NCBI GenBank assembly: GCA_043808155.1
Contig: JAZDFD010000001.1
Location: 1-64,000 of the forward strand
Source of the DNA: Candidatus Iainarchaeum sp.
Lineage (GTDB): Archaea > Iainarchaeota > Iainarchaeia > Iainarchaeales > JAZDFD01
DNA: 64,000 nt
Direction: 5' to 3'
Under the pieces are notes generated by a model. That model saw nothing but the letters and a program-made list of their open reading frames with translations. It ran no database searches and had not been told where the DNA came from. Position 1 is the first letter of the stretch, and each line of letters opens with the position of its first letter. Shown here one piece after another: positions 28,155 to 46,310 of the stretch. The position numbers and the translations under genes were made by a program.

Positions 28155-28340
28155 TATTACTGTCTTATCGGAGATAGGACACATATGCTCACGCAAGGGA
28201 CTCCGTCCCTTTGCAAACCCTGAAACTTTTTAATAGAATATTACTGCGGGGTTGAAAACCCCGCATATATGTTCACAATCGGAACGCCGATTAGCCCCGA
28301 GGAGTTCCACACATAGGGGCAACTACGTTTCCCCCTATTA
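28155..28340 (+). repeat. Cluster of palindromes: two module A copies, a C-type hairpin and a displaced tRNA-Gln 3' end
   Basis: TATTAC...CACATA at 28155-28185; TATTAC...CATATA at 28239-28269; TAGCCCCGAGGAG at 28292-28304 equals 28371-28383. Confidence 0.8.
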
Positions 28341-28370
28341 CCCCCTTCCTTTAATTATTAATAAAAAAGA

Positions 28371-28443
28371 TAGCCCCGAGGAGATTCGAACTCCTGTCAC
28401 CGGGTCCAAAGCCCAGCATCCTTGGCCACTAGACTACGGGGCT
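28371..28443 (-). tRNA. tRNA-Gln(TTG)
   Basis: AGCCCCG...CTGGG-CT-TTG-GA-CCCGG...GTTCGAATCTCCTCGGGGCTA. Confidence 0.95.
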
Positions 28444-28469
28444 AGTTTAAAGGAACTTAATAATTAGCT

Positions 28470-29681
28470 TTAGATTACGTATTTAAAGCTTTCTGGACTG
28501 AAAATATTGAACTTAGTTTTGTATTTTTTGATTTTGTTTAAGTTATGTTTTTGAGGGAGGGTAGCGCAGTTGGTAGCGCACGCGACTGATAATCGCGCGG
28601 TCATGGGTTCGAATCCCATTCTTCCCACTATTTTACGTAGAAGTTCATTTTTCTCCACACCGCAGTATTTTTTGCTCTTTTTTGAAATTTTCACACCATC
28701 AACAAAACCACCTAATTTCCAAAAATTTCTTATTGACTTTGAATCATAAATTCTAACACCACAAGCACCTGACCACGAACTTTTGCGCTTTCCAATTTTT
28801 CCATTGAGTCCATATTTCTTAAAAATAGTCTGCCATTGTTTGCACAAATTTGCATTATAGCATCCTAAATTCAATTCTGACTTCTTAGTTTTTGGATAGC
28901 TAATGCAACCATCAGTTGTAAAAGCAAAGCGAATGCACCAACTAAGTGTCTTCTCATCACATTTGTTTAGAAAATCTAGAGTTGGTTGTGGTTCATTTAA
29001 ATATTCGTTAACAGTTTGTCGATGTGCAGGAGATGTTTTGTAATTTGGGCTTAGTTTAAACAATTTCCGAGATAGAGTTGCATCTGTAAGTTTCAGATTA
29101 AACACTCCTTTTTTAGATTTATTAATTGCAGGCACATATCTACTAAGTCTAAGTAAAAGGCTGTTCATAAAATCCCTCAATATCGGATCTTTTGTAGAAT
29201 AAGCTATTCTATTTCTATCCCCACATGCTGAAAGAGAACCATCTGTCATCAGACAAGTTGCAAGAATGCACATTAGATTAACACAATCTTTTTCAAGCAA
29301 AGTTAGTAACTTATTATCAATTTTAATATTAAAGTCACTTTGAAGATTCTTTCTGCTTATGTGCGTTCTTATATATTTAGTATATTCATAAATATTTTCT
29401 ATTTGAGCTATTCTTGCTGAACCGCCTTTTCTTGCACTCCAATTCATAGGTAATTTCTTCCCAATATAGTTCTCAAATTCTTTCAATTCGGGTTGTAAAA
29501 TACATATTTTCTGAAAAACTGAAAAAGTCATGTTGCATTTTTCTTTTAACCAGTCTTTTAATGTCCATCTGCCGAGTTCTAACAATTCCGAGAGTTCTCT
29601 TTGTGGAAGATTTTGTTTCTTGTAAAAAGCCAATAAAAATTCTCGCTGTTTTCCTTTTTTAAATTTCAGCCTAAAGTTCAT
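28470..29681 (-). CDS. Free-standing LAGLIDADG-type endonuclease with N-terminal HTH
   Basis: LATCLMTDGSL and IRFAFTTDGCI double motif; N-terminal HTH; C-terminus is the antisense translation of tRNA-Ile. Confidence 0.75.
   Translation of the reverse strand: MNFRLKFKKGKQREFLLAFYKKQNLPQRELSELLELGRWTLKDWLKEKCNMTFSVFQKICILQPELKEFENYIGKKLPMNWSARKGGSARIAQIENIYEYTKYIRTHISRKNLQSDFNIKIDNKLLTLLEKDCVNLMCILATCLMTDGSLSACGDRNRIAYSTKDPILRDFMNSLLLRLSRYVPAINKSKKGVFNLKLTDATLSRKLFKLSPNYKTSPAHRQTVNEYLNEPQPTLDFLNKCDEKTLSWCIRFAFTTDGCISYPKTKKSELNLGCYNANLCKQWQTIFKKYGLNGKIGKRKSSWSGACGVRIYDSKSIRNFWKLGGFVDGVKISKKSKKYCGVEKNELLRKIVGRMGFEPMTARLSVACATNCATLPQKHNLNKIKKYKTKFNIFSPESFKYVI
28555..28627 (+). tRNA. tRNA-Ile(GAT)
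   Basis: GGGAGGG...CGCGA-CT-GAT-AA-TCGCG...GTTCGAATCCCATTCTTCCCA. Confidence 0.95.
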
Positions 29682-29792
29682 ATATTCAAAAGAAAAAGTT
29701 CATTTAAAAACAAACTTGGAGGTACATTTCCGATGAAATCCCTCCTTTCCCATTTCTTTTTCTTTTAAAATATATCTGAACGTAATAGTGAT

Positions 29793-30515
29793 ATGGTTGT
29801 TCCTAAAAAAATAAAAACACAACGAAGAAGCTTACTTCCTCAATTAGGAAATATGAGAATTTCTAAATCTGAAGCGGGAAGAAGACCTGAAAAAGCACAA
29901 TTGGATGCACGTAGGAAAGAAGAGTATTTAGAACATGATAGATACGGGGTTGAAGATGAAAGAACAAAAAAAGGTTGGCCTGCATTTCGTTCTGAATTAT
30001 GGAAAGTTGAAAAAAATTTACAAACAAATATCGTAGAGTATGTTCAAGAAAGAATTTCTAAATTTAGTGAAAAAACCCCTTTCAAAGTTATGGATTTGGG
30101 TTGTGGGGCAGGCGTAGCATTAAAAGAATTGAAAGGGCGACATCGAAAAAAAATAAAAACAACAGGTGTTGTTTTAAGAAAAACATCCGGGGAAACCTAT
30201 GGTGGTGTTGACCGTTTAATTGAAGGGGATATTAACCAAATAAATCCACGTGAAAAATACGATTTAATATTTTCAAATGCAGGCGCTACATTTTATACAC
30301 GACTTAAAACCACTGCATTTGAACGTGTGATTAGTTGGTTAAAACCAGACGGACGAGCAATACTTGAAATGGGCCACATGTCTGAAGATACACTAAATGA
30401 ATTGAAAACACTTCTTATGCAGAATGGAATCAAAAATTATGAACTTCGAAAAGACACTGCAGTAGGTGGAATTATTCTTGATTTTATTAAACCAGTACCC
30501 AAACTCCCAAAATAA
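29793..30515 (+). CDS. Class I SAM methyltransferase with basic N-terminal extension
   Basis: MDLGCGAG, YDLIFS and WLKPDG motifs. Confidence 0.85.
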   Translation: MVVPKKIKTQRRSLLPQLGNMRISKSEAGRRPEKAQLDARRKEEYLEHDRYGVEDERTKKGWPAFRSELWKVEKNLQTNIVEYVQERISKFSEKTPFKVMDLGCGAGVALKELKGRHRKKIKTTGVVLRKTSGETYGGVDRLIEGDINQINPREKYDLIFSNAGATFYTRLKTTAFERVISWLKPDGRAILEMGHMSEDTLNELKTLLMQNGIKNYELRKDTAVGGIILDFIKPVPKLPK

Positions 30516-30561
30516 TTCTTCTTTAGCAACTAATTAATATAACTTAAAACATTATTTCAGC

Positions 30562-31479
30562 ATGGAAACTCTGGTTATTGCTCTTGGCGGAAATGCACTC
30601 ATTAAACATCACCAAATTGGAAATTATAAACAGCAACTTGAGAATGTTAAGGAAACTTCAAAACAGATTGCAAAGCTGATTAAGAAAGGTTATTGCGTTA
30701 TTTTGACTCATGGAAATGGCCCCCAGGTTGGGAACCTGCAGATTCAGATGATAGCTGCGTCTGAAAAAGTTCCTGCAATGCCACTTGATGTGGATGTTGC
30801 AATGACGCAGGCGCAGATTGGTTACATGCTTCAGCAGAGTTTAAGGAATGAAATTCCTGCTGAGAAAGTTGCAACAATTGTTACTGAAATTGTTGTTGAT
30901 AAAAATGATTCTGCTTTCAGAAAACCAACAAAACCAATTGGACCTTATTACAAAAGCAAAAGCGAACTGAAAAAAGCAAAAATAAAAAATTTCATTTATG
31001 TGAAAGGGAAAGGCTACAGAAAAATTGTTGCATCTCCAAAACCAAAAAAAATAATTCAGTTAGAGAGTGTGAAGAAACTCTCTGAAAAGAAACGGGTTGT
31101 GATTTGCTGCGGCGGGGGGGGGATTCCTGTTGTGAAAAAAGGAAATGATTTTTTTGGCGTTGAGGCAGTAATTGATAAGGACAGAACTGCTTCATTGCTT
31201 GCAAAGGAACTGAAAGCGAAAACACTTGTGATTTTAACTGATGTTGAATTTGTTTATCTGAATTTTGGAAAAAAGAATCAGAAAAAATTAAGGAATGTGA
31301 AATTAAAAGAAATGAAAAACTATCTGAAGGAAGGGCATTTTTCAGAAGGTTCAATGAAACCAAAAATAGAATCTGCAATTGAATTTATTGAAAACAGCGG
31401 GAAGGAAGTAATAATAACTTCTTTGAACAAACTGCTTTCAGCAAGGAATGGTAAAACAGGTACGCGCGTGATAAAATGA
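30562..31479 (+). CDS. arcC: Carbamate kinase
   Basis: ALGGNAL, THGNGPQVG, PTKPIG and EAVIDKD motifs. Confidence 0.97.
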   Translation: METLVIALGGNALIKHHQIGNYKQQLENVKETSKQIAKLIKKGYCVILTHGNGPQVGNLQIQMIAASEKVPAMPLDVDVAMTQAQIGYMLQQSLRNEIPAEKVATIVTEIVVDKNDSAFRKPTKPIGPYYKSKSELKKAKIKNFIYVKGKGYRKIVASPKPKKIIQLESVKKLSEKKRVVICCGGGGIPVVKKGNDFFGVEAVIDKDRTASLLAKELKAKTLVILTDVEFVYLNFGKKNQKKLRNVKLKEMKNYLKEGHFSEGSMKPKIESAIEFIENSGKEVIITSLNKLLSARNGKTGTRVIK

Positions 31480-32417
31480 ACACATTAAAAGGACGGGATT
31501 TTTTAACACTGCAGGATTTTTCTAAAAAGGAAATTGCGAAAATGTTAGACAGAGCAGAAAATCTAAAATCAAGATATGCACGCGGCGGAGGCGCTAAAAA
31601 ACTCCTGAAGGGAAAAACACTTGCAATGCTTTTTATGAAACCCTCAACTCGAACACGGGTTTCATTTGAAACAGGAATGTATCAGCTGGGAGGGCATGCA
31701 ATTTTTTTGAATAAAGACCATACGCAAATTGGAAGGGGCGAGAGTGTTAAGGACACGGCGCTGGTGCTTTCACGATATGTTGATGGCGTAATGGCAAGAG
31801 TTTATGAGCACGAGTATTTGAAAGAGTTTGCAAAATGGTCTAGCGTCCCTGTGATTAATGGGCTTAGCAATTTTTTACACCCCTGTCAGGCTTTAAGTGA
31901 TCTTTTTACAATACAGGAAACTGTTGGAAAATTAAAGGGAGTTAATGTTTCCTATGTCGGAGAAGCAAATAATGTGTCAAATTCATTAATGATTGGCTGT
32001 TCAAAAATGAGTGTTGATTTTACAATTTATTCTCCAAAGCAATTTCCTGTGAATGAAACAATTTTGAAATATGCAAGAAAAAATGCGGAAGAATCTGGCG
32101 CTGAAATTTTAGTAAAAACAAAAATAGATGCAACGCTTGAAAACTCAAAATTCATTTATACTGATACATGGGAATCAATGCACCAAAGATTTGATAAAAA
32201 AGAACTTGAAAGAATAATGGCACCATTCCAAGTTAATGAATGCATGATGAAGACTCTGAAAAAAAGAAGAAAAATGTTTTATTTCATGCACGATCTCCCT
32301 GCACACAGAGGACATGAAATTACTTCAGAAGTAATGGATTCAAAATATTCAATAATTTTCAGACAGGCCGAAAACAGACTGCATGCACAGAAAGCATTAA
32401 TGAGTTTAATTCTTTAA
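31476..32417 (+). CDS. argF: Ornithine carbamoyltransferase
   Basis: STRTR, HPCQ, HDLP and QAENRLH motifs. Confidence 0.93.
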   Translation: MNTLKGRDFLTLQDFSKKEIAKMLDRAENLKSRYARGGGAKKLLKGKTLAMLFMKPSTRTRVSFETGMYQLGGHAIFLNKDHTQIGRGESVKDTALVLSRYVDGVMARVYEHEYLKEFAKWSSVPVINGLSNFLHPCQALSDLFTIQETVGKLKGVNVSYVGEANNVSNSLMIGCSKMSVDFTIYSPKQFPVNETILKYARKNAEESGAEILVKTKIDATLENSKFIYTDTWESMHQRFDKKELERIMAPFQVNECMMKTLKKRRKMFYFMHDLPAHRGHEITSEVMDSKYSIIFRQAENRLHAQKALMSLIL

Positions 32418-32813
32418 TCACTGACCAGTGATTTTAATATAAAAATTTCTTAATCTCGGACCATCGAATTCACAAAAGAAAATGCTCTGCCAGGTTCCCA
32501 AAATTAGATTTGATTCGTGAATGGGAATTGTTACAGAGTTTCCAATAAGTGAAGATTTGATATGCGCATCTGAGTTTCCTTCTGAATGTAAATAATTTTC
32601 ATCTTTAGGAATTAGCATTTCAAGTTTTCTGCTTATGTCAAGAACAACAGCAGGATCTGCACCTTCATTAATTGTAATGCCTGCAGTTGTGTGCGGTATG
32701 TAAACTGTGCAAAAACCATTTTTAACATCTGATTCGGAAATTGCTCTCTGCACATCTTTTGTAACATCTATAAAATCTGTTCTTTCACGCGTGCTTAATG
32801 TTATTTTTTTCAT
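32418..32813 (-). CDS. yjbQ: YjbQ family protein
   Basis: HTTAG, NSDAHIK and LGTWQSIFFCEFDGPR motifs. Confidence 0.95.
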   Translation of the reverse strand: MKKITLSTRERTDFIDVTKDVQRAISESDVKNGFCTVYIPHTTAGITINEGADPAVVLDISRKLEMLIPKDENYLHSEGNSDAHIKSSLIGNSVTIPIHESNLILGTWQSIFFCEFDGPRLRNFYIKITGQ

Positions 32814-32846
32814 ATAGTCACATGCCTGTTCAATTCACAAATAAAT

Positions 32847-34139
32847 TCAAGGATATAATCTGTTCATTGTTCTTGGATAAGGAATTACATCTTTTATGTG
32901 TTCTAATTTGCATAACCATGTTGTTAATCTTTCAATACCCAAACCAAAACCTGAGTGTTGTATTCCGCCGAATCGTCTCAAATCAACATACCATTGATAT
33001 GGTTTTGGATCAATATTCTGAGATTTCATTCTGCTTAAAATTTCATCCATATTCCAGCATCTTTCACCTGAACCAATTATTTCACCATATCCTTCAGGTG
33101 CTAGAATATCATTACATAAAAGATACTTTGGATTTTCAGGATCAGGTCTGTGATAAAATGGTTTTAGTTTTGCAGGATAATGAGTTACGATAATCGGTGT
33201 TTTGAAATCTTTAGTAATTTCACGCTCTTCTTTTTCTCCTAAATCTGACCCGTGTTTTAACTTTGGAAATTTCTTTTGAGCTTCTTTCAGAATCTCATCA
33301 TAAGTATATCTTGGCCATTTCTTAGTTATGGTGGGTTCTAAATCCTTTGGGTTTCTGCCTAATGCTTTGAGCTCTTTTTCATTATTTTCAATAACTTTTT
33401 TTGCCATGAATTTAACCATCATCTCCTCAAAATCAAGCAGTTCAGATAGCCCCATCCATGCAAATTCACCCTCTGCATGCCAGAATTCTGTCACGTGACG
33501 GCGCGTTCTGCTTTTTTCTGCTCTGAAGGACGGAGCGATAGTATAAACATCTCCATGGGAGAAAATAAAGGTTTCAAGATAGAATTGGGAACTCTGAGTA
33601 AGATATGCTTTTTTGCCGAAATATGGCACTTCAAAGAGTGTTGAACCACCCTCCACAGCACCAGTGACAAACATCGGACCCTGAACTTCAAGTACATTTC
33701 TTTCTTTCATAAACTCCCTGAAAGCCTCAAGAACTGTTGCTTTTACTTTCAAAGCATCAGTCATTTTTGAGGAGCGCATCCAGAGATGTCTTACATCTAA
33801 AATAAATGCTTCACTTAAATCTCTCTGGATTGGAAATTCATCTGCTAAAGAAATTATTTCAATATCATCTGCAACTAATTCAAAACCATTTGGCGCTCGT
33901 TTATCTTCTTTCAAAGTTCCTGAAAGTGAAACACTGGATTCAATTGTTGATTCTTCTGCTTTTTCCCAGATTTCATTTTTTAAATCAGGTTTTGCAAAAA
34001 CACATTGCATTTCATTTGTTGTATCTCGGAGAAGAATGAAAATTTTCTCTCCAAACGCACGTTTTCTTTTAACCCATCCACGTAATTTGAACTTTCCTTT
34101 TTTCTTTTTTAAAGCTTGGTTGATTGTTGTAAATTCCAT
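32847..34139 (-). CDS. asnS: Asparagine--tRNA ligase
   Basis: YLTQSSQFYLE, FRAEKSRTRRH and GEIIGSGER motifs. Confidence 0.93.
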   Translation of the reverse strand: MEFTTINQALKKKKGKFKLRGWVKRKRAFGEKIFILLRDTTNEMQCVFAKPDLKNEIWEKAEESTIESSVSLSGTLKEDKRAPNGFELVADDIEIISLADEFPIQRDLSEAFILDVRHLWMRSSKMTDALKVKATVLEAFREFMKERNVLEVQGPMFVTGAVEGGSTLFEVPYFGKKAYLTQSSQFYLETFIFSHGDVYTIAPSFRAEKSRTRRHVTEFWHAEGEFAWMGLSELLDFEEMMVKFMAKKVIENNEKELKALGRNPKDLEPTITKKWPRYTYDEILKEAQKKFPKLKHGSDLGEKEEREITKDFKTPIIVTHYPAKLKPFYHRPDPENPKYLLCNDILAPEGYGEIIGSGERCWNMDEILSRMKSQNIDPKPYQWYVDLRRFGGIQHSGFGLGIERLTTWLCKLEHIKDVIPYPRTMNRLYP

Positions 34140-34147
34140 AATCTCAC

Positions 34148-35464
34148 TTAAGGTAAAATTCTTTCAGTATCTCTTGGGAAGAGAACAACCTCTCTTATGT
34201 TTTCAATATTAAGTAATGTTTTTGTTATTCTTTCAATTCCAATTGCAAAACCGCCGTGCGGTGGAACACCATATTTGAAAAATTTAGTAAACCATTCTAA
34301 ACTTTTTTCTGACATTCCTGATGCATGCAACTGTGAAATGATTTTATCGTATCTGTGTTCACGCTGACCCCCAGAACTTAATTCAGTGCCTCTGAAATTT
34401 AAGTCTACGCTTCTTGCGTAATCTGGTTCATCATCAACACGCATTACATAAAATGGTTTTATTGCAGAGGGGAATCTGTTGAAGAAATAAAATTCTGATT
34501 TGTGTTTTTTCTGCACATATTCCCAGAAAATATTATTTGCTTCTGCATCTAAGTCTTCGCCTCTTTTAATTTTGCATCCTTCTTTTTCTAAAATATTGTA
34601 AATTTCAGGAAATCTGAATTCAGGAAATGGTTTTGTGGGAACGTTTACTTTCACACCAAGTAATTCTAATTCTGCTTTGCAGTCTTTGTTTACTTTTGTC
34701 ATTGCAGAAATAATCAAATCTTCCTGAAGTCTTATTGTGTCAGTTTCATCATTGAGGAACGCCATTTCTGCGGCAACAACTCTGTGTTCTGAGAGATGCT
34801 GAGTTGTGTGTGATTTTTCAGCTCTCCAGCATGGGCCAATATCAAATACTTTTTCAATTCCTGATGCAATTGATAATTGTCTGTGCAACTGCGGGTCCTG
34901 TCTTAAGAATACTTTTTTATCATTGTGATAATTTACTGAAAAAACTTCTGAACCAGATTCAGAAGGTGCACCCATTAAACAGGGAGTGAATACTTGTGTG
35001 AAATCTTGTTTTAGGAGTTCGTCTCTCATTCCTTCAAGAAGTTTTGATTCAATCTTTATTATTGCCTGGTTTTCAGGAGTTCGTAAATCAATACATCTCC
35101 AGTCTAATCTGCTGGGCAATTCTGACTTTATTTTTCCGCTGATGTCAAGAGGTACGGGTGTTTCAGCACGTGCTAGTAATTCAACTTTTGAGGGGATTAA
35201 TTCAACTCCGTTTGGGGCTTGTTTTTCTGCTTTCAATTCTCCAGTGATTATTACTACGCTTTCTTTTGTCAGATTGTTCAATTCTGAGAAAAGTTCTTCA
35301 GATACATTTGCTTTGTGAGCAGTGACTTGTACATAACCAGTTTTGTCCCTTATTTTCACAAACTTCAGTTTCCCAAAATCACGGATTTCAAAGACCCATC
35401 CCGCGATAGTTGCCTTTTTTCCGGCTAATTTCTTGTTTAATTCGTTTGCGTATAGTCTTTTCAC
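34148..35464 (-). CDS. aspS: Aspartate--tRNA ligase (archaeal type)
   Basis: QDPQLHRQ, ELSSGGQR, PPHGG and FPRD motifs. Confidence 0.93.
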   Translation of the reverse strand: MKRLYANELNKKLAGKKATIAGWVFEIRDFGKLKFVKIRDKTGYVQVTAHKANVSEELFSELNNLTKESVVIITGELKAEKQAPNGVELIPSKVELLARAETPVPLDISGKIKSELPSRLDWRCIDLRTPENQAIIKIESKLLEGMRDELLKQDFTQVFTPCLMGAPSESGSEVFSVNYHNDKKVFLRQDPQLHRQLSIASGIEKVFDIGPCWRAEKSHTTQHLSEHRVVAAEMAFLNDETDTIRLQEDLIISAMTKVNKDCKAELELLGVKVNVPTKPFPEFRFPEIYNILEKEGCKIKRGEDLDAEANNIFWEYVQKKHKSEFYFFNRFPSAIKPFYVMRVDDEPDYARSVDLNFRGTELSSGGQREHRYDKIISQLHASGMSEKSLEWFTKFFKYGVPPHGGFAIGIERITKTLLNIENIREVVLFPRDTERILP

Positions 35465-35521
35465 GAAAATTCCCCTTTATTATATATACAAGAGGTTTTT
35501 ATAAAGTGTTTTGGGGATTTT

Positions 35522-36517: not shown

Positions 36518-36640
36518 CTAAACCACTAAAAAAATTAAAGCATTAATAATAAAACATTCAGAAATAAAAACCCAACGTCAGGAATATAAAGAACCTTGTG
36601 TTAATATTAGTGAAATCCTGGGAAGAGGCTTTGATTCCAA

Positions 36641-37759: not shown

Positions 37760-37791
37760 ATTACACAAAGTTCTAATTATTGCGTGATTTT

Positions 37792-39285
37792 ATGGGATTT
37801 GATGATTCACGATTTGATATGTATGATAATGTAGGTTCCAGAAATGAAGATTATGATGCAGAACCTAGCCAGATAGATGCTGTGAAGCAGTATTTGCCAA
37901 AAATTGTCATTGCTATTGTTGTTCTTGCAGTTGCATATTTTGCCTATGATTATTTTATTGGAAGCGTGACTGAAGTTAGTTTTGATATTGAAAATACAGA
38001 AGGCAACAAAATAAACAGCACAATTTTAGTTTATGATTCTCAGAATAATGAAGCATATAACAGTTCTTCAGGTAATAAAGCAAATTTGAGATTTGGAGAT
38101 TACACTTACGAAGTTACTGCAAACGGTTATAAACAAGAGATGGGTGATTTCACAATAAGTGCAAATAATAAATCTGTTAAAATTGAAATAGAAAAAGATA
38201 TGGATATTGAATTTGGTGCTGTTTCCTTTGCAGGGGGTTTGAGTCTTACAAGTCCTTTGCAGGGAACTGTTGAACTCAAAAATAATGATTCTGAAACTCA
38301 TGCAGTTGAGCTTGTTTTTGAAGGTGATTTTGATGAATATGATGTTATCATATTTCCTTCAACTGCATCTGTCCCTGGAAACGGGAACTCCATAGTTAAT
38401 GTTACTGCAACTCCAAAAGAAGGGACTGAAATTAAAAAAAGCAGTGGTGATTCTAAAAAAGGAACTATAAGAGTCAAATATTTAAACAGTGAGAAAGCTA
38501 TACACGAAGTTAATTTCAAACTTTATAAAGAAACTGAGATTGATACTCCTTCTAAAGTTACACTTAGTGTGAAATATAATGATTCAGACAATAAAAATGT
38601 GAAAATAGAAAATGATAATGATTTTGAAATAAAGAATGTTAAACTCGAACTTGATATTTTAGGTTCAACAATTAATGACACAGATGACATTTTAAGCTGG
38701 ATTTCATTTCCTTATGGTTCGGAAATAGATTCAATCCCTGCAAAAGGAGAACATGAATTTAAAATTCAGATTGATACACCACTTGATGCAAAAAAAGAAG
38801 ACATTGAAGCACAGATACGCGTAACATCAGCCTCAACAGATGAAACAATTACAATTGAACTCAGTATTAAAATTACTGATGAAGCTGAAACCGCACTTGA
38901 AGTTTCAATCAGTTCAAGCGCGCAAAATATTGAAATTGAATGGGACATAGAATCAGAGAAATTTGAAAAAGTTGAAAAATACAATCTTGAAATTGATAAC
39001 AAAGGCGACGTAACTATTTCAGAGATTCAGATTTCTGTTAAAAACAATGCAGAATGCATTACTTCCTGGTTAAGTATTTTATCACCTGCTGTTGGCACTC
39101 TCACTGCAGGCGATGATACTGAAGTTCCAATCACAATTTCTGCACCAAACGCAGTTTATGGGAAAGAAGCAAATTCTATTTCATGTGAGTTTGAAATTTC
39201 ATATGATGACCCCTTTGGTGGACCGCGTATAAAACAGGCGGTTCCCCAAAACATCCAAATAACTGCAAACTGGGAGGATGTGTAA
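37792..39285 (+). CDS. Membrane-anchored acidic Ig-repeat surface protein
   Basis: TM near N-terminus; repeated beta-rich domains. Confidence 0.7.
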   Translation: MGFDDSRFDMYDNVGSRNEDYDAEPSQIDAVKQYLPKIVIAIVVLAVAYFAYDYFIGSVTEVSFDIENTEGNKINSTILVYDSQNNEAYNSSSGNKANLRFGDYTYEVTANGYKQEMGDFTISANNKSVKIEIEKDMDIEFGAVSFAGGLSLTSPLQGTVELKNNDSETHAVELVFEGDFDEYDVIIFPSTASVPGNGNSIVNVTATPKEGTEIKKSSGDSKKGTIRVKYLNSEKAIHEVNFKLYKETEIDTPSKVTLSVKYNDSDNKNVKIENDNDFEIKNVKLELDILGSTINDTDDILSWISFPYGSEIDSIPAKGEHEFKIQIDTPLDAKKEDIEAQIRVTSASTDETITIELSIKITDEAETALEVSISSSAQNIEIEWDIESEKFEKVEKYNLEIDNKGDVTISEIQISVKNNAECITSWLSILSPAVGTLTAGDDTEVPITISAPNAVYGKEANSISCEFEISYDDPFGGPRIKQAVPQNIQITANWEDV

Positions 39286-39288
39286 ATA

Positions 39289-39735
39289 ATGACTATGACA
39301 CATTCAGATTTGTTTGGCAAGAAAATAGTTATTAGGAGTTTTTTTGTTACGCCCTTGATTTTTTTATTTATTGTTTTAGTAATGAGTTCTAATCCCAGCT
39401 TTGGAAATATAAGCGACATACAAAAAGCTGTGCTCCCATTTATTGCAATAACGTTTGCATTAGTGGGAATTATATCTAATGTTTTTGCTAGATTTACACT
39501 TGAGCAACAATTAAAAAATACAGAACAGGATTTTCCAATACTACTAATAATGATGACTTTTTCAGAAATACCAGTAATTTTAGGTTTGATTCTTACAATA
39601 CTGCTTGAAGAAATAATATACTTCTTTGGATTTTTTGTTTTAACATATTTACTAATGTTATGGAATTTCGGTCTTGTAAAAAACTGGGAACAGAAGATGC
39701 AAGAAGACCAAGACCAAACGGGGATGTATGCATAG
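39289..39735 (+). CDS. Membrane protein
   Basis: Four hydrophobic segments. Confidence 0.6.
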   Translation: MTMTHSDLFGKKIVIRSFFVTPLIFLFIVLVMSSNPSFGNISDIQKAVLPFIAITFALVGIISNVFARFTLEQQLKNTEQDFPILLIMMTFSEIPVILGLILTILLEEIIYFFGFFVLTYLLMLWNFGLVKNWEQKMQEDQDQTGMYA

Positions 39736-39887
39736 CCCCTGGGGATATTCACACACAGGGGACTCCATTCGCGATAATCCAACCAAACTTTACGAGAATA
39801 GTGAGATCACAACAACTTATCTGATGAGTAAAATAAACAAGTCTGCAAAGGAAATCCTTATATATCATTTGTATACCTATTTGATGT

Positions 39888-40154
39888 ATGAGCAATAAAA
39901 TGATTAATTTGAGATTGGGCAATCGTCTTATCCAAGAGATTGACAAAGCAGTAAAAGAAGAGCTTTACGAGAACAGAACTGAATTTATAAGAGCAATTTT
40001 AAGGGAAAAACTCAAAGAACGAAAAACAGAGAAATTAATCCAGAATTTGAAGAAAAGACAGGGCGAGGGAAAGCGATTGGGGATCAAAGACCCTTCAGAA
40101 GAAGAGTTCAGAAAAATCAGGGAAAATACATGGGATAAATTACATGAATCATAA
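39888..40154 (+). CDS. Ribbon-helix-helix (CopG-like) putative antitoxin
   Basis: INLRL...EIDKAVKEELYENRTEFIRAILRE. Confidence 0.85.
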   Translation: MSNKMINLRLGNRLIQEIDKAVKEELYENRTEFIRAILREKLKERKTEKLIQNLKKRQGEGKRLGIKDPSEEEFRKIRENTWDKLHES

Positions 40155-40577
40155 TTCTTCAGGAAGAAAAGATTTTGTAATGTGATTGAGTTTCTCAAAA
40201 TGCTTATCTCTAGAAACGACAATTGCACCATAATCTCTTGCAAGTACTGCGCACAAAGAATCTGTTTTAGGAATGTTGAATTTCTTGGAAATTTTCCTAG
40301 CTTCTTCAACTTGCGTATCAGAAGAATCAATAAATTCAATTTTCTTCGCATTCAGCAATTCTTTAAACACGGTATTTTGCAGATGTGATTCATTACAATT
40401 CAATATGTTTTTAATTTCAAAAACAACGTCCTTTGGAATAATCAGAAAATATTTACAACTTACTGCGTTATTGAAAAACTGAAATGCGAATTCGCCAAGC
40501 GGTTTAATTGAATCTTTTCTATCAAAATAATAATCAAGAAAAATATTTGAATCCACAAAGACTCTCTCAGCAACCAT
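40149..40577 (-). CDS. PIN-domain (VapC-like) protein
   Basis: FVDSNIFLD, DSLCAVLA and SRDKHF motifs. Confidence 0.88.
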   Translation of the reverse strand: MVAERVFVDSNIFLDYYFDRKDSIKPLGEFAFQFFNNAVSCKYFLIIPKDVVFEIKNILNCNESHLQNTVFKELLNAKKIEFIDSSDTQVEEARKISKKFNIPKTDSLCAVLARDYGAIVVSRDKHFEKLNHITKSFLPEEL

Positions 40578-40644
40578 AAAAAAATATTTGTTTTTACATT
40601 TAAAAATAGATTAGCAAGAGCTCATTTCCGGTGAACTTAAAAAA

Positions 40645-40716
40645 AGCCCCTGGGGAGATTCGAACTCCCGATCCCTTGTTTACGAAACAAGTGCTTTACC
40701 ACTAAGCCACAGAGGC
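40645..40716 (-). tRNA. tRNA-Thr(CGT)
   Basis: GCCTCTG...CTTGT-TT-CGT-AA-ACAAG...GTTCGAATCTCCCCAGGGGCT. Confidence 0.95.
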
Positions 40717-40759
40717 GCGCTTGATGACGATAATATCTTTGTCAATAAAAATAATTATA

Positions 40760-40825
40760 TATTACCGTGGGATTGAACAAAGTGAAATCCCACATATATT
40801 CGCACTCGCCGGGCGCGACGGCGAA
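40760..40825 (+). repeat. Module A+C palindrome
   Basis: TATTAC-CGTGGGATT...AATCC-CACATA; GCACTCGCCGGGCGCGACGGCGAA. Confidence 0.8.
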
Positions 40826-42316
40826 TTAAAGCGTTTTGTATTCTGCTTTTCCAATTTTTAATTTCCAGAGAGTTTCAGGGAGTTCCTGAATTTTGATTCT
40901 TTTCTGTTCCATTGAGTCACGCTCACGTAAGGTAACAGTTCCTTTCTCTAAAGTATCATAATCTAAAGTAATTGCATAGGGAGTTCCAATTTCATCAGCA
41001 CGCGCGTATCTTTTGCCTATGCTCCCTTTGTCATCGAAGAAAGCATCAAACTCAAAGTCAGAGAGTTCTTTGTAAAGGCTTTCTGCTTTTTCTTTTAACC
41101 CGTCTTTTTTCACTAATGGGAAAACAGCAACAAAGAAAGGTGCAACTCTTGCAGGGAGTTTCAAATATGTTCTTTCTTCAGGTCCTCGCTTTTCTTTTCT
41201 GAAGCCATGGTCTAAAACAACATATAATGTTCTGTCAATTCCTGCTGAAAGTTCAAAAACATGCGGGATGAATTTTTTTCCGTCTTCATTTACTGAAAGA
41301 TCTTTTTTGCTTTCTTTTGAATGGGATTTTAAATCATAATCTGTTCTGTAATTGCATGCCATTAATTCAATCCAACCCAAATCAGTTTCAACTTCAAAAT
41401 CCCAGGTTTCTTTTGCATAAAATGCTCTTGCTTCTTTTGCCAGTTCTCTGAAACGCATTGCTTTTACTGGGATGCCATATTTTTCAAACAACTGCTGAAC
41501 CCTTGTAATATAATAAGCAACTAATTTTCCTGAAACAATTTTTTTAGAAACTGCGTCTTTGCAGGAGATTGGATTCATTTTTTTCCCGATAAGCATTAAA
41601 TTGATTTTGTAATTTTCAACGTCATCAAAATTTTCAACTTCATTTATTTTATCAGGATTGAAGAAAATCTCTGCTTCGAATTGTCCGATTTCACGTTCTC
41701 TGATTAAACTCTGCCTTGGAGATATTTCATTTCTGAATGAAGTTCCTGCCTGTGCAATCCCAAAAGGCAAATTCAGGCGCATTGTTTTGTAAAGTCTGCT
41801 AAAATCCAAAAAAATACTCTGGCAGGTTTCAGGTCTCAAATAACATGGGTTTTGTCCTGTTGCACCAATTTCAGTTTTCATCATCATATTGAAGCGTTTG
41901 ACTTTTCCTAATACGCCTTTGCATTTTGTACATTTGATATTGTTCTTTTCAATAAGTTCTGTGAACTTTTCATCAGCCATGCTTTCAGGGAGCGATTCTT
42001 TTGTTTTTTCTTCAATCAGTTTATCTGCTCTGAAGTGTGAATGGCATTTTAAGCACTGAACAATAGGGTCATCGAAATTCTCTAAATGACCCGAAGCTTT
42101 GAAAACTGCTTCAGGCATAATCTGAGCTCCGTAAATTTCAAGCATATTTTCTTTCTGCACTAATTCTTTTCTCCAGAGTTCAATTATTTTTCGTCTCAGA
42201 GATTCTCCTACTGGTCCGAAGTCCCAAAAACCAGAAGGTGCATTTGGATAAATGTCTGCTGACGGATAGAAAATTGATCTCCTCAAAGCTAAATTTACGA
42301 TTTCTTCTTGTGGCAT
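40826..42316 (-). CDS. glyS: Glycine--tRNA ligase (alpha2 type)
   Basis: LRPETCQ, FRNEISPR and GSIGKRYARADEIGTP motifs. Confidence 0.96.
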   Translation of the reverse strand: MPQEEIVNLALRRSIFYPSADIYPNAPSGFWDFGPVGESLRRKIIELWRKELVQKENMLEIYGAQIMPEAVFKASGHLENFDDPIVQCLKCHSHFRADKLIEEKTKESLPESMADEKFTELIEKNNIKCTKCKGVLGKVKRFNMMMKTEIGATGQNPCYLRPETCQSIFLDFSRLYKTMRLNLPFGIAQAGTSFRNEISPRQSLIREREIGQFEAEIFFNPDKINEVENFDDVENYKINLMLIGKKMNPISCKDAVSKKIVSGKLVAYYITRVQQLFEKYGIPVKAMRFRELAKEARAFYAKETWDFEVETDLGWIELMACNYRTDYDLKSHSKESKKDLSVNEDGKKFIPHVFELSAGIDRTLYVVLDHGFRKEKRGPEERTYLKLPARVAPFFVAVFPLVKKDGLKEKAESLYKELSDFEFDAFFDDKGSIGKRYARADEIGTPYAITLDYDTLEKGTVTLRERDSMEQKRIKIQELPETLWKLKIGKAEYKTL

Positions 42317-42499
42317 TGTTCTCACTTCTAAATATCAACTCAAAAAGAATTTATAAATATGTTTATGCCAAATTTTTTTCAAAAAAATACTTTTAAATAC
42401 TAGTTAGGACTTTCTTTAAATTAAGATATAGTAGAGTGCAATGATGGCTTGCATAGTTTAGCATTTCTGATTATGTCAAAAACTAGGGGGGTTTGACCC

Positions 42500-42565
42500 A
42501 TGGTGAAGAAAAAACCTGCTGCAAAAAAAGTAAAGAAGAAAGCAGTAAAGAAAAAGAAGAAATAA
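42500..42565 (+). CDS. 21-aa Lys-rich micropeptide
   Basis: MVKKKPAAKKVKKKAVKKKKK preceded by G-rich SD-like AGGGGGGT. Confidence 0.55.
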   Translation: MVKKKPAAKKVKKKAVKKKKK

Positions 42566-42749
42566 GCATGTATGATTATACATTTGATAATAGGGGCATT
42601 TTTGCCTCTCTCTTATTTTTTTGAAATCAGGAAATTATTCAAATAATCTGTTTTTAAATATTAGTGTTTTTCGAGGACAGGGGTTCATTTTTATGCTTTT
42701 TGACACGCGAGTATCTTGCTCAAAAATATATGTTTTGGGGGGACTTGAA

Positions 42750-42824
42750 ATGAAATGCTTTTTAGAAAATGATCTCTACATGTCGGATGATGATGAAGAA
42801 TACAGCGATGAAGAAGATTATTAA
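42750..42824 (+). CDS. 24-aa acidic micropeptide
   Basis: MKCFLENDLYMSDDDEEYSDEEDY preceded by GGGGGGA. Confidence 0.45.
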   Translation: MKCFLENDLYMSDDDEEYSDEEDY

Positions 42825-42908
42825 GATGCAGATGAATGATTGCTCTGAAAATCTTTGCCCTATTTCTTTTTTTATTTTTTATTATTTTAGCAGTTTATTG
42901 TTTGCGGG

Positions 42909-43448
42909 TTAGGCATTCTTTAAATAGACGACTAAATTCCTTGTCAGAGTTTTAACTGAAGAAACATGTCGGGACATTTCTTTGTTTAATTGTGGGTCCA
43001 AAAATGGACTTATAATTAAAATTGAAAATGAAACTGAAACTATGTGCAGTAAAGTGAATGGAATCTGCATTATCAAAGTCACAATAAATGGCTGATTAAA
43101 CATAAATGAACTCATTATCGGGCCAGTTATAAAATCAAATATTAATACTGCAACTGCTCCCGAGCCAAGAAATAATTTCATAGTAGATTCTTTGTTTTTA
43201 AGGAAAAAATGGAAAAGCATTATTACTGCAGAATATGTGAGGCTTGTTACCAACGTCCACAACCCCAAATGACCTGTAATTATATCAAAAGAAAACATTA
43301 CTGCAAACGCAAACAACGCACCTTTCCACCATGGTTCGTTTTTTGCAGCAGGAAGTGCAAATCCCATTATCGGATCTGAATTAGGGAAAATTCTGAAAAA
43401 TCTGTAAAAATTTGTTAAAATCGCACCAAATAAATATTTGAATTTCAT
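42909..43448 (-). CDS. Membrane protein, ECF S-component-like
   Basis: Five to six TM segments; RIFPNSDP and IPFTLLH motifs. Confidence 0.6.
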   Translation of the reverse strand: MKFKYLFGAILTNFYRFFRIFPNSDPIMGFALPAAKNEPWWKGALFAFAVMFSFDIITGHLGLWTLVTSLTYSAVIMLFHFFLKNKESTMKLFLGSGAVAVLIFDFITGPIMSSFMFNQPFIVTLIMQIPFTLLHIVSVSFSILIISPFLDPQLNKEMSRHVSSVKTLTRNLVVYLKNA

Positions 43449-43506
43449 TTAATCACACCACATATATATCTGAAAAGACTTTATAAAAGTGTCTTTAATA
43501 TAATAT

Positions 43507-44538
43507 ATGGATATTATGCCAACAACAAACTTGGAAAGACTCCGAAAACAGCTTATTTCTAAGGCTAAAAAACAGATATCGGAAAAGTATTCAGGAGATG
43601 ACATTCACATAATCAGAGCAGTGAATGTTCTTGAAGACCTTGATTTTATTTTTAATTTACTGAGTGAACATGCACGTGAATGGTATTCAGTGCATTTCCC
43701 TGAACTTAATTCACTTGTGAAAGATAATGAAACCTATCTGAAAATGATAAATGATTTGGGAACACGAGAAAATTTTACAGAATCAAAAATTGAACAGTAT
43801 GCAAAAGAAAAAAATATTTCAAAAATTGCAGAAAAAGCAAAATCCGGAATGGGTTCTGAAATCGGAGAAAAAGAAATGGGAGAAATTAATTCATTAGTGA
43901 AAAATGCACTTTCTCTGAAAAAGGAAAGAAATGCACTTTCTGCATTTATCGAAAAAGAGACTGCTACTTTAATGCCGAACTTTTCAGAACTTGCAGGTCC
44001 GATTTTAAGTGCAAAACTTCTTAATGAAGCAGGAAGTTTCAAAAAACTTGCAATGATGCCAAGTTCCACAATGCAATTATTGGGAGCGGAGAAAGCACTT
44101 TTCAGACATATTAAATCAGGTGCACGCCCTCCAAAATACGGACACTTATTTCAGCATCCTCTTGTAAAACAAATGACACCCTGGCAGAAGGGTGCTACTG
44201 CAAGAACTATTGCAGGAAAATTAAGTATGGCAATTAAGGAAGATTATTTTGGAGATAAGAAAATTGCAGAGGATTTGAAAAAAGATCTTGAAGTAAGACT
44301 TAAGGAAATTTCAGAAACTCACAAGAAAAAAGAACCAAAAGAAGGCTCCAGAACAGATTCACAAACATATTCAAAGCCAAGAAGCTATTCAGATAACTCA
44401 GGACCCCGACCATATTCAAAACCAAAACAATATTCAAAACCAAGAACATATTCAAATAAATCAGGTGCTAAACCATTCAAAACTCAGGGAAATAAATTTC
44501 GTAAACCATTCAAAAAGAAAAATACATTCGGAGCATAG
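43507..44538 (+). CDS. nop5: Nop5/Nop56 box C/D RNP protein
   Basis: REWYSVHFPEL, QLLGAEKALFRH and PKYG motifs. Confidence 0.96.
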   Translation: MDIMPTTNLERLRKQLISKAKKQISEKYSGDDIHIIRAVNVLEDLDFIFNLLSEHAREWYSVHFPELNSLVKDNETYLKMINDLGTRENFTESKIEQYAKEKNISKIAEKAKSGMGSEIGEKEMGEINSLVKNALSLKKERNALSAFIEKETATLMPNFSELAGPILSAKLLNEAGSFKKLAMMPSSTMQLLGAEKALFRHIKSGARPPKYGHLFQHPLVKQMTPWQKGATARTIAGKLSMAIKEDYFGDKKIAEDLKKDLEVRLKEISETHKKKEPKEGSRTDSQTYSKPRSYSDNSGPRPYSKPKQYSKPRTYSNKSGAKPFKTQGNKFRKPFKKKNTFGA

Positions 44539-44546
44539 GTGTTTTT

Positions 44547-45209
44547 TTGAAGGAGATTTTCCCTGGAATTTATCTTATCAATGGGAAGTTGGCTACTTTA
44601 AACTCAGTTCCCGGAAATAAAGTTTATGGTGAACAGTTAGTTTCAGTTAAAGATCAGGAATTTCGTATTTGGGACCCCTACAGATCAAAATTAGCAGCTG
44701 CGATTAAAAAAAATCTAAAAACTGTCCCTTTGAAAAAAGATTTCAAAGTTTTATATTTGGGGAGTGCAGAAGGTACAACTGTTTCTCATGTTGCTGAGAG
44801 TGTTGGTGATAAAGGGCTGGTTTTTGGTGTTGAGTTTAGTGAAAGAACTATGAGGAAATTTATTGACATCTGTGAATCGCGTTCAAATATAATTCCGATT
44901 TTAGCAGATGCTAACAAACCAGACTCATATTCGGAATATTTAGAAGGTCAGGGCATTGATTTGCTTTATCAGGATATTGCACAGAAAAATCAGGCAGAAA
45001 TTTTCAATAAAAATGCAAAAATGTTTCTGAAAAAAGGCTCTTTTGGAATGATTGCAATCAAAGCGCGTTCCATAAGCCAGAAAAAAAATATAAAAGAAAT
45101 ATTTGACACAGAGATTGCTGAAATTGAAAAAGAATTTAAAATAATTGAAAGTGTTCCTTTAGCTCCATTTGAGAAAGAACATTTATTTGTTGTTTGCCAA
45201 AAAAAGTAA
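44547..45209 (+). CDS. flpA: Fibrillarin-like 2'-O-methyltransferase
   Basis: WDPYRSKLAA, VLYLGSAEGTTVSH and YQDIAQ motifs. Confidence 0.96.
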   Translation: MKEIFPGIYLINGKLATLNSVPGNKVYGEQLVSVKDQEFRIWDPYRSKLAAAIKKNLKTVPLKKDFKVLYLGSAEGTTVSHVAESVGDKGLVFGVEFSERTMRKFIDICESRSNIIPILADANKPDSYSEYLEGQGIDLLYQDIAQKNQAEIFNKNAKMFLKKGSFGMIAIKARSISQKKNIKEIFDTEIAEIEKEFKIIESVPLAPFEKEHLFVVCQKK

Positions 45210-45231
45210 GATTTTTAAATTAGTGATTATA

Positions 45232-45798
45232 ATGATTTCAGAAGTTAGAAGAAAATTTATTCACATTGGAATTGGCTCTGTCTTTGTACTGATGGTTTTC
45301 TTTTTAGGAACTATTAATTCATTAATGATTTTATTTCCAATTTATATTATTGGTCTAATTAGTTCATTTTTGATTTTAAAGGGAGTTAGAATTCCATTTG
45401 CTCATGCCTTACTTGATGATGTGCAAAGAACAGATGAAAAGCATCTCCCGGGAAAAGGAGCGCTTTATTTTTTCCTTGGTGCAAATTTAGTTTTAGCTTT
45501 ATTTTGGTGGAATCAGTTATTTGTTTTAGCAGCTCTTTGTACTGTTGTTTTCGGAGATGGTTTTGCAACAATGGTTGGAATTAAGTTTGGTAAACACACA
45601 TTAATTAGCGGAAAAAGTGTTGAAGGAACTCTTGCATGCATTATTGCGTGTGTAATTTTTCTTCATGTTTTATTTCCGTTCAGTATTTACAGAATTGGAT
45701 TTACTGCATTTGTTGCAACTGCAGTTGAACTTCTTCCATTAAATGACAATTTAGGGATGCCATTAGCAACAGCAGCAACATTATTATTGTTAATTTAA
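45232..45798 (+). CDS. Dolichol/phytol kinase family membrane protein
   Basis: RKFIH, GDGFA, KSVEG and NDN motifs. Confidence 0.88.
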   Translation: MISEVRRKFIHIGIGSVFVLMVFFLGTINSLMILFPIYIIGLISSFLILKGVRIPFAHALLDDVQRTDEKHLPGKGALYFFLGANLVLALFWWNQLFVLAALCTVVFGDGFATMVGIKFGKHTLISGKSVEGTLACIIACVIFLHVLFPFSIYRIGFTAFVATAVELLPLNDNLGMPLATAATLLLLI

Positions 45799-45818
45799 GA
45801 TAAAGTATGTGATGTCAG

Positions 45819-45859
45819 TGCCACTTTAGTGGCACCCGTACTAGCCGGACGTGACGGCG
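45819..45859 (+). repeat. Module B+C palindrome abutting tRNA-Arg
   Basis: GTGCCACT-TT-AGTGGCAC followed by GTACTAGCCGGACGTGACGGC. Confidence 0.8.
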
Positions 45860-45860
45860 T

Positions 45861-46001
45861 GGGCCTGTGGCGCAACGGATAGCGCAGCTGCCTCCTAACG
45901 GACAGATCCGTTAACGATCTGTATGTGCGGGGTTTTCAACCCCGCGATAATAATACGTGGGAGCGAGCAGAAGGTTGAGAGTTCGATTCTCTCCGGGCCC
46001 G
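45861..46001 (+). tRNA. tRNA-Arg(CCT) with 68-nt intron (45898-45965)
   Basis: GGGCCTG/CGGGCCC acceptor; CT-CCT-A then intron; GGAG-CG^A BHB half; GTTCGATTC T-loop. Confidence 0.9.
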
Positions 46002-46027
46002 ATATTCATTTTTTGTAATTTTAGAAA

Positions 46028-46310
46028 TATTACTGCACTGTTGTGCAAAACAATAGTGCACATATCGCACTAGCCGGGCGTTCGGCTTTCGATTCTCTCC
46101 GGGCCCGCCTTTTTAAAAAAAGGCAGGTTGCAACTTAAACCAATGAGGTTTAAGTGCACACTGAAACCAAAGTTTCAGTTGTGCCAAAAAGGCAAATCCT
46201 TTGGGATTTGCACATCTATTTTTTCAAAACAACTTTTATTAACAACCGAGCCCAAGCGAGATGTGCCACTGCAAGTGGCACTCGTACTAGCCGGACGTGA
46301 CGGCTTAAGC
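46028..46310 (+). repeat. Palindrome cluster with displaced tRNA-Arg 3' end
   Basis: Module A at 46028-46064, module C, TTCGATTCTCTCCGGGCCCG at 46088-46107 equals 45982-46001, further hairpins, B+C at 46263-46304. Confidence 0.8.

Follow-up and report, generated by a model that had tools for sequence, protein, structure and literature searches.

The window described here spans the initial 64 kb of contig C1 from a Candidatus Iainarchaeum sp. genome. It contains three tRNA genes (Arg, Gln, and Thr) that are each followed by a displaced copy of their own 3′ end. We consider it about an even call that such displaced tails are target duplications, produced by duplicative, transposon-like insertion of nonautonomous hairpin elements that prefer the region from the T-loop to the 3′ end of tRNA genes. 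The genome under study (hereafter G000) comprises 1.08 Mb in 35 contigs, has a GC content of 35%, and is 88% complete. Other genomes of the order are given G-numbers, loci from relatives or metagenomes L-numbers, and contigs C-numbers. G000 is the sole member of its family among the genomes compared, and its nearest relatives are related at the order level (~65-73% DNA identity in one neighboring gene).

Displaced tails at tRNA genes

A first-pass annotation of the window had listed direct duplications of the 3′ end at four tRNA genes. Those at tRNA-Arg, tRNA-Gln, and tRNA-Thr are confirmed in length and spacing, as are the two genes carried at tRNA-Thr; the degenerate copy claimed for tRNA-Ile is at chance level (see below). 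The features of the three loci are listed by position in the window.

45817-45860 (+), hairpin element A, consisting of hairpin 1 and the box GCCGGACGTGACGGC, ending 2 nt ahead of tRNA-Arg +1 (nhmmer E = 5e-14; fold)
45861-46001 (+), tRNA-Arg(CCT), with an intron of ~68 nt (~45898-45965) that holds a hairpin module (Rfam 47.6 bits; ARAGORN)
46002-46087 (+), Arg insert, 86 nt (fold z = -3.3)
46088-46107 (+), Arg displaced copy, tRNA-Arg nt 54-73, exact (20/20) to 45982-46001
46262-46310 (+), third copy of hairpin element A, upstream of the promoter region of a helix-turn-helix (HTH) gene at 46376-47086 (nhmmer E = 3.8e-15)
28371-28443 (-), tRNA-Gln(TTG), intact (ARAGORN; Rfam 62.5 bits)
28305-28370 (-), Gln insert, 66 nt, a G-rich hairpin ending ...CCCCTATGTGTGGAA (fold z = -2.1)
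28292-28304 (-), Gln displaced copy of the last 13 nt, CTCCTCGGGGCTA (exact 13-mer, 13/13, direct, 66 nt downstream)
28154-28291 (-), native-type tRNA trailer after the Gln displaced copy, made up of a hairpin (28278-28291) and two modules (module scan)
40645-40716 (-), tRNA-Thr(CGT), intact (ARAGORN, Rfam)
39734-39750 (-), Thr displaced copy, 16/17 nt, separated from tRNA-Thr(CGT) by 894 nt
39750-39766 (-), right end of the Thr insert, GGAGTCCCCTGTGTGTG (motif search)
39888-40154 (+), ribbon-helix-helix (RHH)-family open reading frame (ORF) in the Thr insert (Pfam RHH_8 1.1e-06; weak NCBIfam matches of ParD/NikR type)
40149-40577 (-), PIN-domain ORF in the Thr insert (Pfam PIN 1.1e-12)
40759-40827 (+), hairpin element, AATATTAC-hairpin-CACATAT plus the conserved box, between the prolyl-tRNA synthetase (ProRS) gene and tRNA-Thr

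Within the Arg insert, the hairpin element occupies the last 61 nt (46027-46087) and ends with CGGCT right before the copy. The hairpin in the tRNA-Arg(CCT) intron shares a 20-nt identity with 28246-28265, and the two modules of the Gln trailer (28238-28270 and 28154-28186) have the form ATATGTG-hairpin-GGTAATAT. tRNA-Thr(CGT) lies downstream from the ProRS gene, as in relatives (a synteny found at 8 of 12 loci examined), and its displaced copy overlaps the stop codon of a convergent 148-aa ORF (39289-39735). Words of GGAGTCCCCTGTGTGTG are also found on C23, within the tRNA-Gln(CTG) trailer, and ahead of the Gln copy in a variant form. The RHH and PIN ORFs (39888-40577) are convergent, tail to tail, with 3′ ends that overlap by 6 nt, so they do not form the usual antitoxin-toxin operon.

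ARAGORN run without introns identified five tRNAs in the window and missed tRNA-Arg(CCT), which was added using Rfam and intron-aware ARAGORN; by the latter, tRNA introns in G000 reach 169 nt, the length found in the tRNA-Trp gene of the window. The genome-wide set of 45 tRNAs comprises 40 from Rfam, four intron-bearing genes from ARAGORN, and one recognized from its two ends (C26:56259-56428). The last 26 nt of each were compared with the 2-kb flank, with other tRNA genes masked and a score of at least 12 demanded. A direct downstream tail copy was found for eight of the 45 tRNAs, compared with 0/45 in each of the controls (upstream direct, downstream inverted, and reversed query). At C28:16892 there is a ninth case, a copy 12 nt long in which one base belongs to sequence beyond the tRNA end. 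When a looser scan (score of at least 14) was extended to the whole genome, 14 tail-like fragments were detected outside tRNAs, versus three for reversed queries; tRNA 5′ ends gave five versus three. An intergenic 15-nt match to the tRNA-Thr(TGT) tail in the window (42735-42749, - strand, TTCAAGTCCCCCCAA) has a score that the reversed-query control also reached (three at 14 or above), and it was treated as chance.

Rather than being scattered, the breakpoints coincide: seven, from five genomes or contigs, are at T54, and two more are at G57. The earlier suggestion that something repeatedly inserts at tRNA 3′ ends is thus supported, in that breakpoints are clustered, the inserts are tiny and noncoding, and no integrase is nearby.

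The hairpin elements and their flanking repeats

Most of the inserts, at 59-185 nt in length, are copies of a family of noncoding, GC-rich hairpin repeats. The element consists of a hairpin of variable sequence, a linker, and a conserved box of ~22 nt, CGCACTnGCCGGnCGTnnCGGC, that itself folds as a second small hairpin. A nucleotide profile built from eight copies (nhmmer) returned 30 matches in G000, 20 of them with E < 0.001. In the 22 copies whose stem is 6 bp or longer, hairpin 1 has 17 distinct arm sequences and keeps its pairing throughout. Copies at different loci are 88-98% identical across 45-70 nt; among those from a tRNA tail, a non-tRNA site, and an antisense tRNA end, identity can reach 96-97% along 70 nt.

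Hairpin modules occur before or after about half of all G000 tRNAs. For the element and three other types of hairpin module, 8/16, 13/16, 13/20, and 9/14 copies are within 200 nt of a tRNA, zones that make up 2% of the genome. In every placement, the box end of the element points toward the tRNA piece. It is 0-2 nt ahead of tRNA +1 at the window Arg locus, C26:83642, and C35:18331 (0-4 nt in several genomes), antisense and 2-4 nt past the tRNA end at Val, Pro, and the C14 Gly copy, and directly before displaced copies in G000 at Arg, Glu (C6), C34:17072, C26:56259, and Leu (C6). The right end of the element adjoins the displaced copy usually exactly at T54. Modules are also found within introns, including those of tRNA-Arg and tRNA-Tyr. 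The tRNA-Tyr intron (G000 C6:43557-43752; L019, L039, L040) ends with the box 1-2 nt before the 3′ exon, an arrangement present in four genomes from three families (G000, G009, G097, G103) with preceding hairpins that differ among them; the intron is ~120 nt in G000 and ~230 nt in G009.

Duplications are not confined to tRNA genes. For 33 box copies in G000, the right flank of the box was sought within 260 nt leftward (score of at least 11). Eleven of the 33 have the flank repeated, starting 0-3 nt after the box, compared with a mean of 1.1 and a maximum of four for permuted flanks. One of these, which involves two paralogous tRNA-Pro genes, was dropped. The remaining 10 are four tRNA tails, three unique AT-rich sites (repeats of 11+, 30, and 33 nt), two from a triple repeat on C12, and one leader hairpin, that of tRNA-Trp, which is ambiguous in that the hairpin is itself a repeat. 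Four other genomes (G014, G099, G034, G093) scored for 6 of 40 box copies, versus 0.6 by permutation; once two tRNA-Lys paralogs (one case) and one tandem unit were dropped, four clean cases were left, with repeats of 20, 22, 23, and ~35 nt and inserts of 80-245 nt. Overall, long direct repeats (about 17-37 nt) flank elements at unrelated non-tRNA sites in five genomes including G000, and on this sequence evidence flanking duplication is a property of the element, not of tRNAs.

Two of these loci have additional structure. In the tRNA-Trp leader (window 10273-10370), a 59-nt hairpin element is situated between two copies of the 21-nt leader hairpin (AGCTCRAGGATATCGCCTTGG). At C12:69780-70080 (- strand), ATGGGCTGTCTGAGGCA occurs three times, each directly after the box of a hairpin element; it has words reminiscent of C/D boxes (GATGGG...CTGA) and is possibly a small RNA gene hit several times.

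Of the 196 genomes of the order, 23 have the box pattern, with 91 occurrences in all (versus 21 for the backward control); this is an undercount because the pattern demanded a non-G end base. Elsewhere in the order the box precedes tRNA 5′ ends, antisense tRNA 3′ ends, the tRNA-Tyr 3′ half (G009, G097, G103), and T-loop-started tails (by eye). The full arrangement of tRNA, hairpin insert, and T54-started copy was verified in four further lineages.

G025, tRNA-Gly(CCC): 75-nt insert with the same conserved box; copy 17/20
G098, tRNA-Ser(GGA): 59-nt insert with the same conserved box; copy 19/20
L067 (metagenome locus), tRNA-Arg(CCT): 78-nt insert with a different hairpin, ...AAGGCTT; copy 20/20
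G020, tRNA-Thr(CGT): 71-nt insert with a different hairpin, ...AAGGCTT; copy 20/20

A hairpin identical to window hairpin 1 upstream of tRNA-Arg (GTCAGTGCCACTTTAGTGGCAC) is repeated three times with a 72-nt period at L018 (G016:C7:7855-8021), in another family. In viral contigs the box has a single match, which sits in a contig with 73% GC and was taken as chance.

Which of the two tails is the original can be judged at three loci. Aligned to each other, the loci of tRNA-Gln(TTG) and its paralog tRNA-Gln(CTG) on C23 are collinear throughout save for a gap of ~73 columns that corresponds to the inserted block; a hairpin trailer is directly 3′ of tRNA-Gln(CTG), whereas at Gln(TTG) the same trailer follows the displaced copy and not the tRNA. 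The Arg displaced copy is on the side of the HTH gene, which is syntenic with tRNA-Arg in relatives. Together with the Thr copy on the stop codon of its neighbor, these observations indicate that the distal copies mark the former tRNA end. Judging from their mismatches, several distal copies have decayed. The Glu copy has A67, versus G67 in both tRNA-Glu genes, and the copies on C34 and in G025 have four and three mismatches, respectively; all of these changes clash with the 5′ strand of the acceptor stem. The distal Leu copy is likewise unfit for its own acceptor stem; those of Arg, L067, and G020 fit.

Insertion model and competing explanations

In the insertion model, an enzyme acting in trans would join the conserved right end of the element to T54, with which the T-loop begins (sometimes to G57), on one strand; on the opposite strand it would join the left end slightly past the discriminator (nt 73 to about 81), and gap repair would then duplicate the intervening 17-28 nt. 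The proximal copy would stay in the working tRNA, and the distal copy would keep the old downstream flank and decay. The same elements would occasionally insert elsewhere, with duplications of 18-37 nt, so the tRNA cases would represent a strong target preference in which one joint is fixed at T54 and the other lies 20-28 nt downstream. Given the long flanking repeats at unrelated sites, the duplication was probably made at insertion and not carried in with the element's own tRNA tail. The first-pass annotation had proposed a system that replaces tRNA 3′ ends; this is one of two readings, and the duplications at non-tRNA sites favor target-site duplication instead.

Several results weigh against this model. 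An enzyme was not found: Pfam searches of the 88%-complete G000 recovered no Cas1, Y1 HUH, RVT_1, rve, or DDE_Tnp_1. No clear terminal inverted repeats were seen, with none in the Arg or Trp-leader inserts; by eye, the trailer hairpin AGCCGGTTTCGTCCGGCT of one array resembles the reverse-complemented box, the only likeness of this kind. The duplications range from 17 to 37 nt, an unusual spread for a single transposase. Among 80 metagenome loci, only one of 46 tRNAs has a tail copy, compared with two in the upstream control at the same threshold, so the phenomenon is patchy. Copies that begin at T54 and stop at nt 73 or shortly after it are equally what the attachment (att) site of a T-loop-class tyrosine integrase would give. 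The box may also be more than a mobile sequence and serve in RNA or in gene expression, because its duplication-free positions at tRNA starts, at tRNA ends, and in the tRNA-Tyr intron make an RNA-level or regulatory role possible.

Finally, the empty alleles that the first-pass annotation had proposed to look for in relatives were not found in clean form among the close relatives examined (the G098 sister species, L045, and G028). The G098 sister species all have different DNA after tRNA-Ser(GGA). In L045, the closest relative found (its neighboring HTH protein is 91% identical), the promoter region of the HTH gene is conserved, and the interval between tRNA-Arg and the HTH gene has a ~198-aa ORF, no hairpins, and no tail copy. 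In G028 the tRNA-Arg gene lacks an intron and the HTH gene is ~120 nt away; this, too, is not a clean preinsertion site. The nearest thing to an empty allele is the paralogous tRNA-Gln(CTG), collinear apart from the inserted block.

The genome search for an integrase or HUH protein, also raised in the first-pass annotation, was successful in part. A XerA equivalog on C34 (283.6 bits versus a cutoff of 220) is the only complete tyrosine recombinase (PF00589), and a second, divergent one is cut by the start of contig C24. No integrase gene (PF00589) is present inside or near any insert, and none is in the window, where the earlier statement of its absence holds. A Y1 HUH transposase (IS200/IS605 or REP type) was considered owing to the TATTAC-hairpin-ATAT appearance and rejected, as there is no Y1_Tnp in G000; this family leaves no duplications. 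Retro-insertion, which the precise right end and the variable left part plus duplications had brought to mind, was rejected, as RVT_1 was not detected and the copies lack CCA. A casposase was rejected too, with no Cas1 detected in G000 or in five element-rich relatives (G014, G099, G034, G093, and G020), one of them a two-contig genome at 97% completeness. No element adjoins either of the two TnpB-like (Cas12f1-like_TNB) ORFs, which have 429 aa (C23:25545-25742) and 414 aa (C7:9042-9236).

A serious rival, particularly for the gene-bearing inserts, is that the tails are classical att duplications made by tyrosine integrases, with the element's own tRNA 3′ part displacing the original tail after recombination in the T-loop (or anticodon loop) and with inserts that are deletion remnants or trans-mobilized satellites. 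We regard this as doubtful overall, and it is kept in serious consideration by the identity blocks, whose first base is exactly T54 and whose last is nt 73 or a few nucleotides later, and by C14. There, tRNA-Gly(CCC) is followed by two cassettes, each with a terminal 3′ half that begins within the anticodon loop, one with an RHH-like and a MazF-like ORF (named by eye from translation); these cassettes look like ordinary integrase products. More generally, the gene-bearing inserts (RHH plus PIN at tRNA-Thr and the two C14 cassettes) may reflect the same process with more DNA, or may be integrase products. Each relative examined has different DNA after tRNA-Ser(GGA) and tRNA-Arg(CCT), as would be the case at an integration hot spot; the truncated second recombinase on C24 counts in favor too; and, in two reports, archaeal tRNA fragments are ascribed to integrated elements (PMC9897764, PMC3293823). 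A site-specific attP, however, leaves unexplained the unrelated repeats of 18-37 nt at non-tRNA sites in five genomes. XerA is the only complete recombinase, and inserts of 59-185 nt with a conserved right end do not resemble random deletion endpoints. Integrase-bearing proviruses at these sites, which the first-pass annotation had regarded as a sign of ordinary deletion remnants, were not seen in the relatives examined.

It is unlikely that the tails are a by-product of double-strand-break repair, in which a LAGLIDADG or other nuclease cuts tRNA genes and template switching into hairpin repeats stops at the GC hairpin. The variable duplication length, the right junction precisely at the hairpin end, and the variable left part would suit such repair, and candidate nucleases are available: G000 has 14 LAGLIDADG_3 matches, and five of ~8 free-standing LAGLIDADG genes are within ~250 nt of a tRNA (from domain coordinates plus the window ORF), including the window gene that is linked to tRNA-Ile(GAT) in G025, G023, and G009 as well. 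However, hairpin inserts with a duplicated tail are never directly beside a LAGLIDADG gene (the nearest case is on C6, where a LAGLIDADG ORF ends inside tRNA-Leu, ~70 nt upstream of such a copy), and the T54 start is too exact for untargeted repair. Still less probable is a functional RNA arrangement in which the box would delimit tRNA pieces on their 5′ side, with the distal copy serving as a processing signal or as an alternative 3′ exon (a T-loop “intron”). The placement of the box just before tRNA +1 in several genomes and before the tRNA-Tyr 3′ exon in four is what this would lead one to see, as are the perfect 20/20 copies that follow lineage-specific T-stem sequences in G000, L067, and G020. 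Set against it are the C34, G025, and Leu distal copies that clash with the acceptor stem, and the elements with flanking duplications at sites without an RNA gene. Archaeal RNase P RNA was also found in G000, so leaders need no special route, and RNase P-free leader processing by the box was rejected on the same ground. Chance matches or assembly artifacts are very improbable. The assembly is fragmented and incomplete, and the Ile case is indeed chance, but chance does not account for eight of 45 versus none in controls, nor artifact for the same architecture in the independent assemblies G025, G098, G020, and L067.

LAGLIDADG genes and known systems

The tRNA-Ile locus of the window comprises the following features.

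28555-28627 (+), tRNA-Ile(GAT) (ARAGORN, Rfam)
28470-29681 (-), ORF of 403 aa with HTH and LAGLIDADG domains (Pfam LAGLIDADG_3, PF14528, 3.9e-08, residues 250-320)
29733-29752 (+), claimed copy of the tRNA-Ile tail (12/20, not above chance)

The degenerate copy that had been placed at 29736-29752 could not be substantiated: the 2 kb downstream from tRNA-Ile include five windows that match at 12/20, and random 2-kb stretches of G000 have a mean of 2.9, with at least one in 90% of them. In translation, the last ~50 codons of the 403-aa ORF run through the antisense of tRNA-Ile. Homologs occur in three of 40 other genomes (G025, G023, and G009), all beside tRNA-Ile(GAT), so that the linkage spans four families including that of G000, and there is no tail duplication. 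By sequence, this gene looks like a homing-type linkage of its own, patchy at a fixed site. The first-pass annotation had combined the LAGLIDADG gene, the toxin-antitoxin-like genes, and the palindromes into one system; this is not supported, and nothing ties LAGLIDADG genes to the hairpin inserts.

Six or seven of the LAGLIDADG_3 matches are within ORFs of 586-1380 aa and are probably inteins. At C6:22325-23527, a 325-aa LAGLIDADG ORF that comes after tRNA-Arg(GCG) runs at its end into the start of tRNA-Leu(TAG); after tRNA-Leu(TAG) come a hairpin element and a 17-nt tail fragment that is identical to the tRNA-Ser(TGA) tail and matches the Leu tail at 15/17. Outside the window, at C1:91974-92973 (- strand), a tRNA 5′ piece of 26 nt (92973-92948) and a 3′ piece of 26 nt (91999-91974), with perfectly matching acceptor strands, are ~950 nt apart. 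Between them are an HTH plus LAGLIDADG ORF and a complete, intron-bearing tRNA-Ala(GGC), and the outer tRNA has no anticodon arm. The motif TTCACCGGAAAT was tried as the left end of a gene cassette and rejected: it is found ~45 nt before the ATG of many unrelated genes, which makes it an operator or promoter motif, not the mark of a cassette. Similar motifs, followed by a TATA-like stretch, occur at window 40624-40635 and 29726-29737 and at many other G000 loci, probably as a shared operator and promoter of leaderless genes.

In a 2002 classification by Williams, tyrosine-integrase att sites in tRNA genes were reportedly divided into T-loop and anticodon-loop types. Like such integrase elements, those described here show a direct repeat of the tRNA 3′ part, from the T-loop or anticodon loop to at or just past the end, and leave the tRNA intact; unlike them, they have no integrase, have noncoding inserts of 59-185 nt, and belong to a family that has long repeats at non-tRNA sites too. 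With MITEs (transposable elements of the miniature inverted-repeat type) and repetitive extragenic palindromes or bacterial interspersed mosaic elements (REP/BIME), they share small size, multiple copies, intergenic location, hairpin formation, lack of coding capacity, and a mosaic of modules in both orientations. They differ from these in the long, variable duplications, the strong association with tRNAs, and the lack of a detectable RAYT/Y1 transposase. As in MITEs, target-site duplications are present (10/33 in G000 and 4/40 in the four other genomes); a related autonomous element with a transposase was not found in the 88%-complete G000. GC-rich palindromes also flank tRNA genes in Neurospora mitochondrial DNA. 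These are similarly conserved and GC-rich in an AT-rich genome, but they belong to an organelle and another domain of life, and we know of no T54-73 duplications reported for them.

The casposase is the nearest precedent. Its target includes the palindrome of the tRNA T-arm, with an adjacent 15-bp duplication that overlaps the end of tRNA-Pro by 5 bp, and off-target duplications in vitro vary (4, 15, 16, and 22 bp) (PMC5137440). The likeness is thus in a transposon-type target duplication beside the T-arm, of a size that varies off target. The differences are that the duplication here spans nt 54 to 73 or beyond and that casposons are large, with terminal inverted repeats and Cas1. Archaeal tRNA fragments and introns have been ascribed to integration of mobile DNA in the two reports cited above (PMC3293823, PMC9897764). 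The hairpin modules within the tRNA-Arg and tRNA-Tyr introns are reminiscent of such models; those involve kilobase-scale recombinase elements, in contrast to the tiny hairpins here.

No account of archaeal hairpin elements that come with T54-73 duplications turned up in searches of the open-access literature. We tentatively raise the possibility of an undescribed class of nonautonomous hairpin elements in this DPANN-like order, for which an enzyme would read the T-arm, join the box to T54, and duplicate nt 54-73. tRNA genes are classic landing sites of mobile DNA, and the known agents are kilobase-scale and bring an integrase or Cas1; here, hairpins of ~60-190 nt would take the same role in tiny archaeal genomes with no recognizable enzyme. 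A practical consequence is that hairpin arrays and displaced tails can lead tRNA annotation astray, as well as the calling of genomic islands. Should the mechanism be new, it would constitute a DNA-insertion activity that reads tRNA gene structure and, if the reading is true, small mobile DNA would be linked to the origin of archaeal tRNA introns, fragments, and long leaders.

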